Of a stretch of 64,000 bases of DNA, positions 11,659-61,667 are shown piece by piece. The DNA comes from Thermocatellispora tengchongensis (GTDB lineage: Bacteria > Actinomycetota > Actinomycetes > Streptosporangiales > Streptosporangiaceae), in NCBI RefSeq assembly GCF_014202315.1, contig NZ_JACHGN010000001.1:21757-85756 (forward strand), read 5' to 3'. Every line of letters starts with the position of its first letter. Positions within the stretch are counted from its first letter, which is position 1. The position numbers and the translations under genes are program-made. The notes below the pieces were generated by a model that was not told the DNA's origin, searched no databases, and was given only the letters and a program-made list of their open reading frames with translations.

Positions 11659-13224
11659 ATGGCGAGATCATCGAGACGACCCGCACGCGCCACAGTGATC
11701 ACGGCCGGTGCCGCGCTGGGAGTCTTCGCACTGGGCGCCGGGCTCGGCGTCGTCGTCTCCGGAGGCTCCGAAGGCACGATGCGGCTCGCCGCCGGCACAT
11801 ATCGGCTGGACGACGACGGCCGGCTCCTCACCACCGAGCCTCCCGCCTCGGAGCAGGAGGCCGCGCCCCTCTCCGACGCCGACATGGGCAGCACGATCAC
11901 GGACGCCGCGGATGACGAACGCGTCTGCCTGACCACGACCACCGACGGCCGGGCCGTCGGCTCCTCCGGACGCGACTGCACCCCGCTGCCGTTCGTGGGC
12001 GGTGCGGCGGGCGCGTTACGCCCCGGCAACCCCAAGCATCCCCCACGCCCGACGGCGACCCCCAGCGCGACGGGCAGCCCCACCGCCACCCCCAGCGCGA
12101 CGGGCAGCCCCACCCGCACCCGGACGGCCCCGCCGTCCCCCCGCCCGACGCCCACCATGACGGGCACGCCCCGCCCGAGCGCGCCGCCCACGCGCACGCG
12201 CACGCCGGCCCCGACCGCCAGCCCCAGGCCGTCCACCACGGCGACCGGGTGCGTGCTGCGCGCGCCCAACGGGGTCGCGCTCACCCCGGCCATGCCGCAG
12301 AGCGGCAACGGCGACCGGGGCCGGCCGCGGCCCACCGGATGCCCGGCGCCCACGACGTCCGTGAGCGCGAGCACCGGCGTGACCCCCACCGCCCCGGGCA
12401 CGCCGACCCGCGACGGCGGCAACCGCGAGATCCTGCCCCCGCGCACCCCCGACGCGCCCCCCACCCAAGCGCCCCGCCCCGGCGCGCCGACCGCCGACGC
12501 ACCCGGTCCCGGCGCACCCACCGCCGACGCACCCGGCCCCGGCGCACCCACCGCCGACGTCCCCGCCCCCGCGCCCAGCGCGGGTGACGGGAGCCGCGAC
12601 GTGGTCCCGCCGACCACGCCCAGCCAGGCGCCCACCGGCAGCCCCTCGCCGGGCACCGAGGGTGGCGGCGACGGGGCGGACAGCCTGCCGGTGTTCCGCG
12701 ACCCCGAGCTGCTGCGGCGGGCGTACGAGGCGCTGGGCATCGGCACGCGCGACTACATCGACGAGAACGGCGTGTGGGACCTCAACGTGGCGCCGCCCGG
12801 CACCCCGCCGTGCCGCGACTACACCGAGGAGGAGCTGGAGCGCCTGCGCGAGCAGGCGGGCGACCGGGGCCTGCCCACCGGCGTGATCCCGCGCGACTCG
12901 TGCCTGTGGCCGGCCTTCATCCGCTGGCTGCTCGCCGACCCGGCGCCGGGCGAGGTGAGCAACTGGACCAAGTTCACCGGCCTGCCGGACCGGAACCTGG
13001 ACATCGAGGTCGTCGATCCGGCGAGCCCGGCACCCGTCGCGACGCCGGCCGTCCCGGCGCAGGAGGTGCCACAGGCGCCGGATCGGCCCGGCGACGGCCG
13101 TGACGACGGCCGTGATGACGGCCCCGACGACGGCTACGGGCGGCCGGAAGGCTACGAGGAGGGGCAGGTGAACGGGTTCGGCCGGGACGAGGCCGGGCCG
13201 GATGGTCCGGGATTCACGGAATGA
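11659..13224 (+). CDS. secreted Pro/Thr-rich repeat protein
   Basis: ATG at 11659 with a GGAGAGGAG RBS, a signal-peptide-like N-terminus, PTATPSATGS x2 and APTADAPGPG x3 repeats, and an acidic C-terminal tail. Confidence 0.7.
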   Translation: MARSSRRPARATVITAGAALGVFALGAGLGVVVSGGSEGTMRLAAGTYRLDDDGRLLTTEPPASEQEAAPLSDADMGSTITDAADDERVCLTTTTDGRAVGSSGRDCTPLPFVGGAAGALRPGNPKHPPRPTATPSATGSPTATPSATGSPTRTRTAPPSPRPTPTMTGTPRPSAPPTRTRTPAPTASPRPSTTATGCVLRAPNGVALTPAMPQSGNGDRGRPRPTGCPAPTTSVSASTGVTPTAPGTPTRDGGNREILPPRTPDAPPTQAPRPGAPTADAPGPGAPTADAPGPGAPTADVPAPAPSAGDGSRDVVPPTTPSQAPTGSPSPGTEGGGDGADSLPVFRDPELLRRAYEALGIGTRDYIDENGVWDLNVAPPGTPPCRDYTEEELERLREQAGDRGLPTGVIPRDSCLWPAFIRWLLADPAPGEVSNWTKFTGLPDRNLDIEVVDPASPAPVATPAVPAQEVPQAPDRPGDGRDDGRDDGPDDGYGRPEGYEEGQVNGFGRDEAGPDGPGFTE

Positions 13225-17155: not shown

Positions 17156-18886
17156 ATGACCCCCCGCAGTTCCTCCCGGCGCCACAAGCTGGTCTCCGGC
17201 CTCCTCCTCGCCGGGGTCTCCGCTACGACCGGCGCGGTCATCGCATATCCGTGGGCCGCCGCGGCCGATCCGGCCTCACCCGAGGCGGCCTTACCCTCGG
17301 GCGTCGAGACGCCCGACCCCACGTCGGCCCCGGCTCCCCAGGAGATCCCCCCGGGGCCGTCCGAGAACGAGGAGCCGACGGACGCCGCGACGGACGAGAA
17401 CACCGCCCCTCCCCCCGAGGAGCAGACCCAGCCCCCCGCGGACGACCCGCCCTCCGCCGAGACACCCACCGAGGCGCCCACCGACACACCGCCGGAGACT
17501 CCCACCGAGGCGCCCACAGAGCCCCCGACCGAGACACCGACTGAGGCGCCGACCGATTCGGAGACGTCCCCGCCCACCGAGACGGCGCGGCCGTCCCTGC
17601 GCCCGACGTACACGCCGCCGTCCAGGCACCGCAACCGCGAGCGCCGCCCCGCCCGTCGCGCCGCCCCCACCCCGGCCCCCTCGACCAGCACGCCGACGGC
17701 CACGACCACCACGCCCCCGAGCCAGGAGCCGATCGAGACACCGACCAATACACCGACCAATACCCCCATCAAGACACCGACCAAGACACCGACCGAGGCG
17801 CCCACCCCCACACCCACCCCCACGCCCACGGGCACGGGTTCCACCGCACCGCCGACCACCTCACCCCCGGCCACGACCGCACCCCCCAAGTCCACCCCGA
17901 AACCGAAGAAGACCCCACCCGCGAAGAAGACCCCGAAACCCAAGACCACGCCGAAGCCCAAGGCCACCTCGAAGCCGAAGCCCACGCCCAAGACGACCCC
18001 CAAGACGACCCCGAAGGCGACGCCCAAGGCGACCCCGAAGGCGACGCCCAAGACCACACCCAAGACGACGCCCAAGACGACGCCCAAGCCCAAGACGGGC
18101 TCCACGGCGGCGCCCACCAAGACCCCGCCCAAGGCACCCCCGAAGACGAGCCCCGCCCCGAGCCCGACCCCGGCACAAACGCAGAGCCCGACACGAACAC
18201 CACCGCAGACGCAGACACCACCCACCCAGGCGCCGCCTCAAACCCAGGCGCCGACGCTGCAGGCGACCCCCACCCCCACGACTCCGCCCACCGTCTCGGC
18301 GTCGCAGCGGGCGACGGTCACCCCCACCCCCACCCCCACCCCCACGACCACGACCACGACCACGACCGCCGGCCCCGTGGGACCGCCGCCGGCGCAGCCG
18401 CAACCCGTGGCGCCCGTGCCGCCGGTGCAGCACCAGCAGGTGCCGCCGGCCGCGGCGAAGAAGGTGCTGCCGATGCCGCCGTTGAAGCGCGCGTCGTCCT
18501 GCCTGCCCTACGACCCGGCGGGCTGCTGGAGCCTGGCCCCGTGGCGGGGCCGCACGGTGTCCGGGATCGCGGCCACCCCGGCCGCGGCGGCCAAGCAGTT
18601 CGCCGAGCCGGCGGGCACCCCGAGGTGGGCCTTCGCGCCGCCGGTCGTGCCCCCGCCGCAGGCGGCCGTCACCCCGACCGCCACGCCCACGCCGACCCCC
18701 ACGACCACCGTGCCCACGACCACTGTGCCCACGACCACTGTGCCCACGACCGTGCCAACGACGACCGTGCCAACGACGACCGCGCCACCCGCCACCACGT
18801 CGGCCAAGCGCGCCGCGCCGCGCGCCGGCTGCTGGTCCTTCAGCCCGTCCGCGCTCTGCGCCAGGTCTGAGGAGCGCCGCCCATGA
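17156..18886 (+). CDS. secreted mucin-like Pro/Thr/Lys-rich repeat protein
   Basis: Signal peptide (LLLAGVSATTGAVIAYPWAAAA), then (TEAPTDTPPE)n and (TPKT/A)n repeat tracts, with Cys-containing C-terminal segments. Confidence 0.7.
   Translation: MTPRSSSRRHKLVSGLLLAGVSATTGAVIAYPWAAAADPASPEAALPSGVETPDPTSAPAPQEIPPGPSENEEPTDAATDENTAPPPEEQTQPPADDPPSAETPTEAPTDTPPETPTEAPTEPPTETPTEAPTDSETSPPTETARPSLRPTYTPPSRHRNRERRPARRAAPTPAPSTSTPTATTTTPPSQEPIETPTNTPTNTPIKTPTKTPTEAPTPTPTPTPTGTGSTAPPTTSPPATTAPPKSTPKPKKTPPAKKTPKPKTTPKPKATSKPKPTPKTTPKTTPKATPKATPKATPKTTPKTTPKTTPKPKTGSTAAPTKTPPKAPPKTSPAPSPTPAQTQSPTRTPPQTQTPPTQAPPQTQAPTLQATPTPTTPPTVSASQRATVTPTPTPTPTTTTTTTTAGPVGPPPAQPQPVAPVPPVQHQQVPPAAAKKVLPMPPLKRASSCLPYDPAGCWSLAPWRGRTVSGIAATPAAAAKQFAEPAGTPRWAFAPPVVPPPQAAVTPTATPTPTPTTTVPTTTVPTTTVPTTVPTTTVPTTTAPPATTSAKRAAPRAGCWSFSPSALCARSEERRP
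17455..18110 (+). repeat. in-frame low-complexity tandem repeats (PTEAPTE... and TPKTTPKATPK...)
   Basis: Visible nucleotide periodicity (gag/acc/ccc/aag/acg units) encoding PT(E/K) repeats inside the 17156..18886 CDS. Confidence 0.6.
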
Positions 18887-57189: not shown

Positions 57190-57507
57190 CGCATCCCACC
57201 CCGCCCGCCCCGCCCGCTCGCCCACCGACCAGCGATCCAACACCCGCATCCCCCGGCCGGACAAACAACGACCGGTCCCCCACGACAACCAGCGGTTGTA
57301 CACCGCGGCCGGGAGCGTCCTGTCGCGACATGGGCGAACGCTCCGGGGGCGAAAACGGGCGGGTGGCCGGAAACCGGAGGCGCCGCGGCCCTCGGCGGGC
57401 GAGATGGGCGCGCTGGAGGCGCGGGATTGCGTACGCGGAGCGGGCCGGCGTGGCATCATGTGATCGTCGGTGTAGGAATGGTTTTCATAATCGGATTGGA
57501 GCGGGGC

Positions 57508-58569
57508 GTGAGAGTGGCCTTCGTTGGCAAGGGCGGCAGCGGCAAGACGACTCTGTCGGCGCTGTTCTCGCGGTACGTCGCGGCGCGGGGCGGGCCCGTG
57601 ATCGCGGTGGACGCGGACATCAACCAGCACCTCGGCATGATCCTCGGGGTCGATGAGGACGACCTGCCGGCGGCCATGGGGGCGCACCTCCGCGAGATCA
57701 AGGAGTATCTGCGGGGGAGCAACCCCCGCATCGCCTCCGCCGAGGCGATGGTGAAGACCACTCCGCCCGGACGCGGGTCGCGGCTGCTGCGGCTGGGCGA
57801 GGCCACCGACGAGATCCACCGGCGGTTCGCGGTCACCACGCCCGAGGGTCCTGGGCTGATGGTCACCGGGCCGTTCGACGAGGACGACCTCGGGGTCGCC
57901 TGCTACCACTCCAAGGTGGGGGCGGTGGAGCTGTACCTGAACCACCTGGTGGACGGGCCCGGTGAGTACGTCGTCGTGGACATGACGGCGGGGGCCGACT
58001 CCTTCGCGTCCGGGCTGTTCACGCGGTTCGACCTGACCTACCTCGTGGCCGAGCCCACGCGTCAGGGCGTGAGCGTCTACCGCCAGTACCGCGACTACGC
58101 CGCCGAGTTCGGGGTGCGGATCGCGGTCGTCGGCAACAAGGTGCAGGGGCCGGAGGACGTCGAGTTCCTGCGCTCGCACGTCGGCGCCGACCTGCTGACC
58201 TGGTTCGAGCACAGCAGGTCCGTACGCGCCCTGGAGCAGGGCCGGGCGTTCCGGCTCGACGACCTGGAGCCGGCCAACCTCGACGCCCTCGCGCTGCTGC
58301 TCAAGCACCTCGACGCCCAGGAGAAGGACTGGGAGCGGTTCGGGCGGCAGGCGGTGGAGTTCCACCTGCGCAACGCCGCGGCCTGGGCCAACCGGGCCAC
58401 CGGGCAGGATCTGGCGGCCCAGGTGGACCCGGAGTTCGTGTTCGGGCCCGCCGCGCTGGGCTCGCACCCGGACGCCGGTTCGCACGCGGACGCCGGTTCG
58501 CACCCGGATGCCGGTTCGCACGCGGATGTCGCTTCGGCGCCTATGGAGCCCGCCGCAAGCCTTGCCTAA
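57508..58569 (+). CDS. ArsA/CooC/MinD-superfamily P-loop ATPase with C-terminal (GSHxDA)4 repeat
   Basis: Deviant Walker A motif VAFVGKGGSGKTT and a Walker B motif (VVVDMTAG). The C-terminus has four tandem 18-bp repeats encoding GSHPDA/GSHADA. GTG start at 57508 is preferred, but an ATG at 57478 is possible. Confidence 0.75.
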   Translation: MRVAFVGKGGSGKTTLSALFSRYVAARGGPVIAVDADINQHLGMILGVDEDDLPAAMGAHLREIKEYLRGSNPRIASAEAMVKTTPPGRGSRLLRLGEATDEIHRRFAVTTPEGPGLMVTGPFDEDDLGVACYHSKVGAVELYLNHLVDGPGEYVVVDMTAGADSFASGLFTRFDLTYLVAEPTRQGVSVYRQYRDYAAEFGVRIAVVGNKVQGPEDVEFLRSHVGADLLTWFEHSRSVRALEQGRAFRLDDLEPANLDALALLLKHLDAQEKDWERFGRQAVEFHLRNAAAWANRATGQDLAAQVDPEFVFGPAALGSHPDAGSHADAGSHPDAGSHADVASAPMEPAASLA

Positions 58570-58602
58570 CGTCTGATTGATCCCCCTTTGAGAGGAGAAA
58601 GC

Positions 58603-58989
58603 ATGTCGCTGACCGTTTCGAACGATCTTCTCGACCAGGCTCTGGCGGGTGAGGTGGACGACGAGGCGTTCGTCGCCTGCGTACGCGACTCACTGCCCTA
58701 CGCGTGGTCGGTGATCAGCGAGCTGGTCGAGGAGCGCGACAGAACCGGCGCCGCATTCGCCGACAACCAGACCCCGCCCCCGGACGAGGCCGCGCGGGGC
58801 CAGCTCCTGCGCTGCCTCGCCAGCGACGCCATGCGGGGCGCGCTGGAGCGGCACTTCGGGATGCGGCTCGCCTTCCAGAACTGCCACCGGGTGGCCGTGT
58901 TCGACCCGACCGCCACCGAGGCCCTGCGCGAGTTCGTCACGCCCAGGGCGCAGATCCTCAACCAGAAGCCGGAGCTCGTCGACTGCTGA
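58603..58989 (+). CDS. small acidic hypothetical protein
   Basis: ATG at 58603 with an AGAGGAGAAAGC RBS, 128 aa, high GC3. Its 3' end overlaps the convergent LLM gene by ~32 bp. Confidence 0.6.
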   Translation: MSLTVSNDLLDQALAGEVDDEAFVACVRDSLPYAWSVISELVEERDRTGAAFADNQTPPPDEAARGQLLRCLASDAMRGALERHFGMRLAFQNCHRVAVFDPTATEALREFVTPRAQILNQKPELVDC

Positions 58990-59974
58990 GCTCCCGCACG
59001 GCCGGCAACACCTCGGCTCCCAGCCGGGCGATGTTCTCCAGGGTGCGGGCCTGCTCGCCCGCACCCTCCACCATCAGGATCAGGTGCCGCAGGCCGGTGC
59101 GCTCGGCGGTCTCGGCGATCCTGGCCACGCAGTGCTCCGGCGAGCCCACCGGGTGCATGGCGCACAGCTCGCGGGTGTAGGCGTGCGGGTCGCGCATCGG
59201 GCGGGGCCGGTCGTCGAGCGGGCGGTGGCTCGCGAGTCCGGGGCCGAGCCAGGTGGGCATCGCCGCCGTCAGCTCCCGCACCGCGGCCTGCGTGGTGTCG
59301 GCCACGTGTCCCACCGCGGCGGCGACGTGTGGCAGCCCGGCGGGCCCCCGGCGCTCGTACGCGGCGATCATGGCCGCCTTCTCGGCGTCGGGGGCGTGCA
59401 TGCCGAGCAGCATGGGCAGCCCGCGCTCGGCGGCCAGCGCGAGCGTCGCCTCCGACGTGCAGGCCACCACGGGCGCGTACGCGCCACCGATCCCCGGCAC
59501 CATCGCCACCTCGCGGAAGCGGAAGAAGTCGCCGCCGGCGCCGACGCTGGGCCGCCGCAGCGCGGCCAGCAGGAGGTCCAGCGACTCGGGGAAGCCGCGC
59601 TCGTACCGCTCGGCGCCGGTGCCGAAAACCTCAAGGTCCACCCAGGGGCCGCCGCGCCCCACGCCCAGCCGGAACCGCCCGCCCGACGCGTGGTGCAGCA
59701 CGGCCGCCTGCTCGGCCAGGGCCACCGGGTGGTGGGTGGACAACACGCTCACCGCGGTGCCCACCTCGATCCGGCTGGTACGCCCCAGCGCCACCCCCGC
59801 CAGCGTCGCCGCCGACGGGCACACGCCGTAGGACATGAAGTGGTGCTCGGCGATCCAGGCGTCGTCGAACCCGGCCGCCTCGGCGGCCACGATCGCCTCG
59901 ACGGTGTCGGCCAGCACCTGGCCGGGGGCGCGGCCCGGAAACCCGGCCGCCACCAGGAAGACCCCGATCCGCAT
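58958..59974 (-). CDS. LLM-class (luciferase-like) flavin-dependent oxidoreductase
   Basis: TIM-barrel LLM signature regions (MRIGVFL..., FDDAWIAEHHF...). The start could extend to a GTG at 60037, which would add a (TGTAM)x4 N-terminal repeat and overlap the rnhB stop. Confidence 0.8.
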   Translation of the reverse strand: MRIGVFLVAAGFPGRAPGQVLADTVEAIVAAEAAGFDDAWIAEHHFMSYGVCPSAATLAGVALGRTSRIEVGTAVSVLSTHHPVALAEQAAVLHHASGGRFRLGVGRGGPWVDLEVFGTGAERYERGFPESLDLLLAALRRPSVGAGGDFFRFREVAMVPGIGGAYAPVVACTSEATLALAAERGLPMLLGMHAPDAEKAAMIAAYERRGPAGLPHVAAAVGHVADTTQAAVRELTAAMPTWLGPGLASHRPLDDRPRPMRDPHAYTRELCAMHPVGSPEHCVARIAETAERTGLRHLILMVEGAGEQARTLENIARLGAEVLPAVRELSSRRAPASG

Positions 59975-59982
59975 GCCGGCCG

Positions 59983-60043
59983 TGCCCGTCATAGCAGTGC
60001 CCGTCATCGCAGTGCCCGTCATAGCAGTGCCCGTCACAGCAGC
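59983..60043 (-). repeat. four tandem 15-bp units (gtgcccgtcatagca-type) at the rnhB / LLM junction
   Basis: Read directly from the sequence. On the minus strand each unit reads ATGACGGGCACTGCT (M-T-G-T-A), in frame with the LLM start codon. Confidence 0.7.
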
Positions 60044-60699
60044 GTCATCTGGCCTTCGCTCGGGTGGCGGTGGCGCTTCAGGTGCCGCCACCGCGGCAGG
60101 TCGTCCAGATAGGACCAGGTCATCCGGTGGTGCGGGGTCGGGCCGAGGTCGGCCAGGGCCTGCTGGTGGACCGGCGAGGGGTAGCCCGCGTTCTCGCCGA
60201 ACCCGTACGCCTCCAGCCCCAGCCCCGCCATGTACGCATCGCGCCGCACCTTGGCCAGCACCGACGCCGCTGCCACCGAGATGGACGCCTGGTCGCCCTT
60301 GACCTCGCACCGCACCGGCCAGGGCGCGCCGATGTAGTCGTGCTTGCCGTCCAGGATCACCGCCCCCGGGCGCTCGGGCAGCGCCTCCAGCGCCCGCCTG
60401 GCGGCCCGGCGCAGGGCCTCGGTCATGCCCAGCTCGTCGATCTCGGCCGCGGACGCCTCGCCGTAGCCGATCCCGGCGGCCCACGCCTCGATCTCGGGCA
60501 CCAGCGCCTCGCGCCGCGCCGCGGAGAGCTGCTTGGAGTCGGTCAGCCGCTCGGGCGGCGGGGACAGGTCGGTGACCACGGCGCACACCGTGACGGGACC
60601 GGCCCAGGCGCCCCGGCCCACCTCGTCCACCCCGGCGACCAGGCGGGGGCGGCGGGAGGAGGTGGCGAGGAGGCGTTCGATGTCATAGCTGGGGGCCAT
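60034..60699 (-). CDS. rnhB: ribonuclease HII
   Basis: [17 protein letters not shown] catalytic motif, DSKQLS, and the overall RNase HII fold. ATG at 60699. Confidence 0.9.
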
Positions 60700-60725: not shown

Positions 60726-61667
60726 TCAGCGGGCCGCCAATCGCAGCGGCTCCAGGTCGGCGGCCAGCACGCGGGCGGCCACGTGCATGGCGCGGATCGT
60801 CACCGAGACCGACGGCCGGTGCACCCCGGACGCGCGGGCCACCGCGTGCACCTCGCGGCCCAGCGACACGCCGGGGAACTCGCGGACCACGATCCCGCGC
60901 ACCCCGGCCGCCAGCGCCAGGGCGGGCACGGCGGCGATGCCGATGCCCTTGGCGACCAGGCTCAGGATCGTGCCCAGGCCCTCGAACTCCCACGGCACGG
61001 GGCGGGCGCCGCCGACCTCGGCGAGGAGCCGGTCCACGGCGAGGCGGGAGGGCTCGCCGTCGGGGGTGGCCATCCACGGCTCATCGCGCAGCTCGGCCAG
61101 ATCGACCGGGACGTCGGGGTCGGCCATGCGGTGCCGGCGGGGCACGACCAGCACCAGCGGGTCGTGCAGGAGGGGGAAGACGCGCAGGGTGGCGGACTCG
61201 CGTTCGCGCACCCGGCCGTACCAGTCGTCCACAAGGGCGATGTCCACCTCGCCGGACTCCAGCTCGCGCATGCCGCGCCCGGAACGGCCCTGACGCATGC
61301 GCAGGCTGAGCGCGGAGTGGCGGCGCAGCGATCGTGCGAGCGCCGGGGCGAATGCGACCGCCGCGGTGGGGAAGGCGGTCACGGTGACCCGGCCCGAGGG
61401 CGTGGCCGCGTGGGCCGACAGATCGGTCTCGGCGGCCTCGACCATGGACAGGATGCGCTCGGCGTGCTCCACGAGCCGGCGGCCGGCGTCGGTCAGCTCG
61501 GCGCTGCGCGCGGTGCGGTCGAGCAGGGCGGTGCCGGCCTCGCGTTCGAGCGCGGCGAGCTGCTGCGAAACGGCCGAAGGACTATACCCGAGAGAGGAGG
61601 CGGTAGCGGCGATACTACCCCTCCTGGCGAACTCGCAGATCAAGGCAAGACGCCGCAGATCGAGCAT
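60726..61667 (-). CDS. LysR family transcriptional regulator
   Basis: N-terminal LysR HTH ([38 protein letters not shown]) and a C-terminal substrate-binding domain. It lies divergent to the aminotransferase gene. Confidence 0.9.

Follow-up and report, generated by a model that had tools for sequence, protein, structure and literature searches.

A 15-nt tandem array across the rnhB–LLM oxidoreductase junction of Thermocatellispora tengchongensis, probably a young and neutral minisatellite

Background

Contingency loci, such as the one formed by the CAAT repeats of Haemophilus influenzae lic1, are built of 1–7-nt units in long perfect tracts, and changes in tract length shift the reading frame. 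MIRUs are about 40–100 bp long, occupy dozens of loci, look mobile and contain a small ORF of their own. As intercistronic minisatellites of actinobacteria they preserve the NTGA overlap of stop and start codon at −4 and leave the neighbouring genes undisturbed (PMC12548453). NTGA at −4 is the commonest arrangement and spacing of translational coupling in prokaryotes (PMC12548453, PMC10666635), and reinitiation is nearly abolished at a spacing of about 20 nt (PMC10666635).

The array described here lies on the minus strand of a 64-kb stretch of T. tengchongensis DNA (the window), between rnhB and the gene of an LLM-class flavin-dependent oxidoreductase (the LLM gene). The original prediction had placed a tandem repeat at 59983–60043, and Tandem Repeats Finder (TRF) located it within 1 nt of that position, at 59982–60042, with 4.1 copies of a 15-nt unit, 93% matches, no indels and a score of 108. 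Like MIRU-VNTR loci, it is a minisatellite between co-oriented genes in which the stop/start overlap is retained, with GTGA at the rnhB stop and ATGA in every further unit. Unlike them, it has a unit of only 15 bp, was found at one locus only within the 64-kb window, and is evidently a local duplication of the host junction that forms one continuous extension of the downstream ORF. The MIRU is the functionally nearest analogue, but the array lacks the defining features of that family. As in NTGA (−4) overlapping gene pairs translated by termination–reinitiation, the first unit supplies a textbook GTGA that links rnhB to an ORF continuing without a stop into the LLM gene; the array differs in that the overlap codon is not the start of the LLM family but lies 63 nt upstream of that start, in that three more copies of the signal follow, and in that the orthologous genes are not overlapped. 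What the array has in common with contingency loci is the position of its tandem repeat, close to the 5' end of an ORF that offers several possible ATG starts. In contrast to them, its unit is 15 nt long, its four copies are imperfect rather than a long homogeneous tract (4.1 copies, 93% matches), and all its length variants stay in frame with both ORFs, with no promoter-like site whose spacing could be altered. Finally, in period, copy number and purity it resembles ordinary coding minisatellites of actinomycetes, for example an 18-bp array of 3.6 copies that encodes GSHPDA/GSHADA in the tail of an ATPase, except that it straddles a gene boundary and multiplies start and stop signals rather than internal residues. 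The most fitting label for it is that of an ordinary in-frame minisatellite that crosses a gene boundary.

Results

Composition of the array

The array unit reads CTGCT(G/A)TGACGGGCA and comprises the final two codons of rnhB, the TGA stop and 6 nt. The best phase is that given by TRF, in which unit 1 coincides with the actual rnhB 3' end, CTG CTG TGA CGG GCA. On the minus strand, unit 1 (60042–60028) is CTGCTGTGACGGGCA, unit 2 (60027–60013) and unit 4 (59997–59983) are both CTGCTATGACGGGCA, and unit 3 (60012–59998) is CTGCGATGACGGGCA. A pattern scan of the 64-kb window for the unit ATGACGGGCACTGCT with at most two mismatches returned four occurrences, all within the array, compared with a shuffle expectation of 0.10, and none of 100 shuffles attained four copies.

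Each NTGA serves both frames, providing the LLM gene with an in-frame start codon and rnhB with an in-frame TGA. The copies differ from one another at two positions only, the G/A that precedes TGA and a T/G. The former is synonymous in rnhB and keeps a start codon in the LLM frame either way; the latter, which is the only substitution inside the downstream copies, changes GCT to GCG in the LLM frame and is likewise synonymous. Since only two positions differ among the four copies, the array appears to be young. When the three added copies were deleted in silico, TGA, 14 nt (CGGGCACGGCCGGC) and ATG were left. In this single-copy junction the LLM start already shares its frame with the (A/G)TG over the stop, and the encoded sequence is M-TGTAG-MRIGVF.

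The upstream gene, rnhB (ribonuclease HII; 60034–60699, minus strand, 221 aa), passes the NCBIfam ribonuclease HII equivalog NF000595 with 215 bits against a cut-off of 167, and its product matches Pfam PF01351; the exact 221-aa product is on record. The coding strand ends in CAG ATG ACG CTG CTG TGA, so that the stop (60034–60036) falls inside the first unit, in agreement with the predicted overlap. Three further TGAs follow in the rnhB frame, 15 nt apart (60019–60021, 60004–60006 and 59989–59991, minus strand), and translation of this frame across the array ends in MTLL-stop-RALL-stop-RALR-stop-RALL-stop. An rnhB–LLM fusion by frameshift or readthrough was rejected, because no slippery heptamer was seen by eye before the TGA and four TGAs stand in frame. 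The start of rnhB has itself been called in two ways: in the gene table of GCA_039543005.1 (L002 2279) the gene is 231 aa long and starts 4 nt inside the upstream LysR gene, at a position that corresponds by coordinate mapping to a CTG at 60727–60729 (minus strand), and the Logan call of 221 aa starts at the ATG at 60699.

LLM gene and its candidate start codons

The conserved core of the LLM gene (58958–59974, minus strand) matches the Pfam family Bac_luciferase, PF00296, with 215.5 bits against a cut-off of 27.9 (E=1.5e-63); among the LLM subfamilies of NCBIfam, none reached its own cut-off with the window protein. In the LLM frame of the coding strand, the array reads GTG ACG GGC ACT GCT / ATG ACG GGC ACT GCG, continues as ATG ACG GGC ACT GCT / ATG ACG GGC ACG GCC GGC, and passes with no stop into the core, which opens with ATG CGG ATC GGG GTC TTC; the array is thus in frame with the LLM gene, as had been claimed. 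Five in-frame starts are available, one GTG and four ATGs (60022, 60007, 59992 and 59974), spaced −4, +11, +26, +41 and +59 nt from the end of the rnhB stop. The GTG (60035–60037, minus strand) would give a product of 359 aa; it forms GTGA with the rnhB TGA, GTG 60037–60035 overlapping TGA 60036–60034, and its frame is open into the LLM core, as in a −4 gene pair. The ATGs at 60022–60020 (+11), 60007–60005 (+26) and 59992–59990 (+41) would give products of 354, 349 and 344 aa, respectively, and the proximal ATG (59972–59974, +59), which begins MRIGVF and is conserved in the family, one of 338 aa (all minus strand). The prediction of multiple LLM starts was therefore borne out as to a GTGA-coupled GTG followed by several in-frame ATGs, but the ATGs number four rather than five.

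Position 1 of the Bac_luciferase model falls on the proximal Met (residue 22 in the numbering of the 359-aa form). In an AlphaFold2 model of that form, built with 36 orthologues (mean pLDDT 84, pTM 0.86), residues 1–20 lacked secondary structure and had pLDDT values of 39–48; the first beta strand comprised residues 23–29, RIGVFLV. As modelled, the enzyme fold begins at the proximal ATG, and the products of the upstream starts are predicted to differ from the normal enzyme only by a disordered tail, 6 to 21 residues long and made of Thr, Gly, Ala and Met.

At its other end the LLM gene is overlapped by 32 nt (58958–58989) by a convergent ORF of 133 aa (58588–58989, plus strand), which matches Pfam PF20704, 'NucS shadow ORF', with E=1e-63 and is conserved beside the CbiA-like ATPase in relatives. 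The name of the Pfam family suggests a spurious ORF; the conserved synteny looks like that of a real gene.

Deposited N-termini and repeated sequencing of the junction

A protein of Thermocatellispora tengchongensis (Streptosporangiaceae) matches the LLM product with 100% identity. The 90% cluster of this product comprises four members, of 338, 344, 349 and 354 aa (WP_185047818.1; GAA5081812.1; MBB5130386.1/WP_425586081.1; and a Logan gene call), the 338-aa form being the earlier RefSeq model, WP_185047818.1. These members differ solely in the ATG chosen, the DNA being identical, so that the N-terminal variants foreseen by the original prediction do exist as database entries, with four of the five possible N-termini deposited. 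That the length variants might be copy-number variants was rejected, since they are differing start calls on identical DNA and the type strain alone is represented.

The junction is base-for-base equal in the window, in the Logan assembly of SRR12365043 and in GCA_039543005.1, and an assembly artefact was rejected because the two further assemblies agree there. The Logan contig matches the window at 100% identity over 6.7 kb, and GCA_039543005.1 does so over 7.05 kb; given this identity over about 7 kb, the three assemblies, which share the same copy number, all come from one strain, and one strain sequenced repeatedly says little about variation in the population. Two metagenome scans, one with the downstream flank and one with two adjacent units, found no other carrier.

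Orthologous rnhB–LLM junctions

For comparison, 80 orthologous LLM loci were taken from Streptosporangiaceae genomes. The LLM orthologues are 65–79% identical across the family, and rnhB lies directly upstream of the LLM gene in 54 of the 80 loci, which indicates that the gene pair is old. The spacer between the two genes is 1 to 883 nt long, its sequences do not align, and frame offsets of 0, 1 and 2 between rnhB and the LLM gene all occur. All orthologous LLM proteins start at M/V-R-I-G-(V/I)-F; most spacers of up to about 80 nt hold no alternative in-frame start, and many spacers have an in-frame stop just 5' of M/V-R-I-G. In the closest relative with a readable junction (L083, LLM protein 78% identical), the junction is TGA-CATCATCGGAGGG-GTG and has no repeat, which places the origin of the array within the Thermocatellispora lineage. 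The spacer of this relative is 13 nt long and carries GGAGG, a motif absent from the window junction.

Tandem arrays of other kinds were found in the same spacer in other species: 14 bp in 5.0 copies in Nonomuraea turkmeniaca (L007 1423-1501), beginning exactly at the rnhB TGA; 22 bp in 3.2 copies in N. glycinis (L047 1361-1501); 57 bp in 2.1 copies in Streptosporangium subroseum (L021 1174-1501); 13 bp in 3.2 copies in S. fragile (L020 1258-1501); and 7 bp in 2.1 copies in S. amethystogenes (L014-L016 1474-1501). Their units are unrelated and contain no start codons, and their periods are mostly not divisible by 3. The occurrence of unrelated arrays in one and the same spacer shows that the rnhB–LLM spacer is repeat-prone and points to a weakly constrained stretch liable to slippage, of which the T. 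tengchongensis array is a further case.

Two further features of the orthologous loci were noted. A conserved motif, (G)GCCATCATCGG(G/A)(G/T)GG, is found immediately 5' of the LLM start, at a distance of some 15 nt, in many loci of Nonomuraea and Streptosporangium and also in the closest relative, at any spacer length (for example L025, L041, L042, L047, L065, L081 and L083); it is in part a repetition of CATCGGG from the first LLM codons and is absent from the window. Several LLM orthologues (P0015, P0042, P0046, P0048 and P0050) have a hypervariable insertion at about residue 205–215 of the 338-aa core, often made of tandem peptide repeats such as RVRDEHARDGRVRDEHGRDGRVRDGDARDG, VRHVAEPVRHVEEPVRREAEVVRREA and ATDQAGPDQAGP; the window protein is without this insert.

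Minisatellites are frequent in the T. tengchongensis genome, the window alone holding eight arrays with a TRF score of at least 90. One of these, 1.5 kb from the 15-nt array, is the 18-bp array of 3.6 copies (58462–58526, plus strand; 91% matches, score 109), which sits in the C-terminal tail of a CbiA/ParA-like ATPase gene (57427–58569, plus strand) and encodes GSHPDAGSHADAGSHPDAGSHADVAS. Dense clusters of arrays with long periods (12 to 36 bp), in which CCC, ACC and AAG units abound, were observed at 12047–12571 and 17454–18786; their TRF scores reach 162, and they presumably encode low-complexity regions rich in Pro, Thr and Lys.

Translation signals at the junction

Duplex energies of the Shine-Dalgarno interaction were weak and much alike for the five starts, at −3.5 to −5.1 kcal/mol, yet no weaker than at the conserved starts in the orthologues, with a median of −4.0 (55 orthologous starts); the proximal ATG was marginally the strongest, at −5.1 against −3.5 to −4.2 for the others. 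Only positions −20 to −3 were scored, and motifs that touch the start codon are accordingly under-scored. Shine-Dalgarno pairing singles out none of the five starts. Given the near loss of reinitiation at about 20 nt, the ATG at +59 would hardly be reachable by coupling. Many orthologues, however, have spacers of 26–140 nt with a single possible start, which argues that independent initiation at MRIGVF works in the LLM family. Start usage is expected to be mixed, with a long form arising by coupling and the 338-aa form by independent initiation, and with the core enzyme the same in both. In a crude survey based on GC3, six same-strand junctions of the window, this one included, had an in-frame NTG at −4, so that a GTGA is by itself unremarkable.

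Folding of the junction gave z=−1.5, which is not significant against shuffles; an Rfam scan of the junction had no match at E<=1, and pattern scans of it for promoters and terminators found none. On these grounds a riboswitch, an attenuator and an internal promoter were rejected. A leaderless transcript starting at a repeat ATG was also rejected, as no suitably placed −10-like TANNNT was seen by eye within the unit and the consensus scan was empty. In the minimum-free-energy fold of 59950–60070 (minus strand), the 3' end of rnhB (CGCCACCGCCACC) pairs with the 5' end of the LLM gene (CUGGUGGCGGC) around the array.

Discussion

The explanation considered probable is that the array is a young minisatellite, specific to T. 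tengchongensis, which arose by local duplication, and that its extra starts are a by-product and form no phase-variation switch. Judged from the comparison with the orthologous loci, the array lies in a repeat-prone spacer and is probably neutral. Tandem duplication of a 15-nt stretch holding the rnhB stop would have added three copies, most likely through replication slippage or unequal exchange, and, with NTGA in a unit of 15 nt, each copy would automatically have brought one more start for the LLM frame and one more TGA for that of rnhB. Such an expansion would harm neither gene, and the extra start codons may be regarded as a by-product rather than a selected device. Ribosomes that finish rnhB would reinitiate efficiently only at the GTG at −4, and perhaps at the ATG at +11, yielding the 359- or the 354-aa form; independent initiation at the proximal ATG, as in the orthologues, would yield the 338-aa form. 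Nor would the in-frame layout need selection: an offset of 2 occurs in about one third or more of the orthologous junctions, and one period in three is divisible by 3. A period that is a multiple of 3, the synonymous GCT to GCG change and the kept start fit weak selection on a translated tail equally well.

Whether the upstream starts are used at all bears on a different account, in which the array is a non-coding gap of 59 nt, the proximal ATG alone is used and a single protein of 338 aa is made. All orthologues start at MRIGVF, often with an in-frame stop just 5' of it, and the arrays of periods 14, 22 and 13 in the spacers of other species are clearly non-coding; Shine-Dalgarno pairing is also marginally in favour of the proximal ATG (−5.1, the other starts giving −3.5 to −4.2), and the earlier RefSeq entry WP_185047818.1 is the 338-aa form. 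The array moreover uses the codons ACT and GCT, which are rare in high-GC actinomycetes. Against this stand the four in-frame starts that precede the proximal ATG with no stop between them, one of which has the −4 NTGA layout, the most favourable to reinitiation (PMC12548453, PMC10666635); no feature of the sequence bars ribosomes from the upstream starts, and the Shine-Dalgarno differences are trivial. An untranslated spacer is rated as rather unlikely. A selected role in translation, in which multiplied starts would raise or set the translation of the LLM gene relative to that of RNase HII and copy number would tune output or isoforms, is suggested by the fact that all four NTG codons of the array are intact and in frame, the first of them GTGA-coupled, that the period is divisible by 3 and that the internal substitution is synonymous in the LLM frame. 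GGAGG precedes the start in the closest relative and is absent from the window, and the extra starts could compensate for this lost ribosome-binding site. However, the array occurs in this species only and shows no conservation, and two substitutions give no statistical power for detecting selection. An in-frame NTGA is expected by chance at about one junction in 5 or 6, an estimate from the orthologue offsets in which a frame offset of about 1/3 to 0.4 is multiplied by the probability that TGA follows an A or a G; the window contains five other same-strand junctions with an in-frame NTG at −4, and orthologues with spacers of 20–140 nt do without extra starts. The translation-tuning element of the original prediction is not sustained by this comparison, in which orthologues start at the proximal MRIGVF, the closest relative is repeat-free, and the other arrays lack starts and are mostly out of frame; selection of this kind is held to be improbable. 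Little credence is likewise given to an adaptive 'coupling relay', a quite improbable variant in which the GGAGG spacer was lost and the duplication of NTGA kept because extra starts restored the hand-over of ribosomes to the LLM gene. If true, copy number would set the ratio of LLM protein to RNase HII or the length of a flexible N-terminal tail, and the array would be a home-grown miniature counterpart of MIRU-type coupling cassettes.

The phase-variable element that had also been proposed, a contingency locus whose repeat number switches LLM expression on and off, draws its sole support from the presence of a tandem repeat at a gene start. A period divisible by 3 makes phase variation by frameshift impossible, and the 15-nt unit cannot alter the reading frame; there are only four, imperfect copies (93% matches), no promoter-like site is present at the operon junction that contains the array, and this junction, copy number included, is identical in three assemblies, albeit of one strain. 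This part of the prediction was abandoned as extremely improbable. The same very low probability attaches to a structured RNA or a protein-binding DNA element, such as iteron-like sites, a leader or an attenuator. The minimum-free-energy fold does pair the 3' end of rnhB with the 5' end of the LLM gene around the array, but its z of −1.5 is not significant, Rfam is empty at E<=1, no terminator or promoter pattern was found, the unit is not palindromic and its sequence is conserved in no relative.

Conclusions

The array adds spare in-frame starts to the LLM gene and confuses gene callers: identical DNA has yielded four deposited N-termini, and a fifth (359 aa) is possible. The safest gene model for the LLM gene is homology-based trimming to MRIGVF. 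No new biological question is raised by the array. It is a natural example of how a tandem duplication over an NTGA stop/start overlap keeps both reading frames, and it could provide a ready-made spacing series (−4, +11, +26, +41 and +59 nt) for the distance dependence of termination–reinitiation in an actinomycete.
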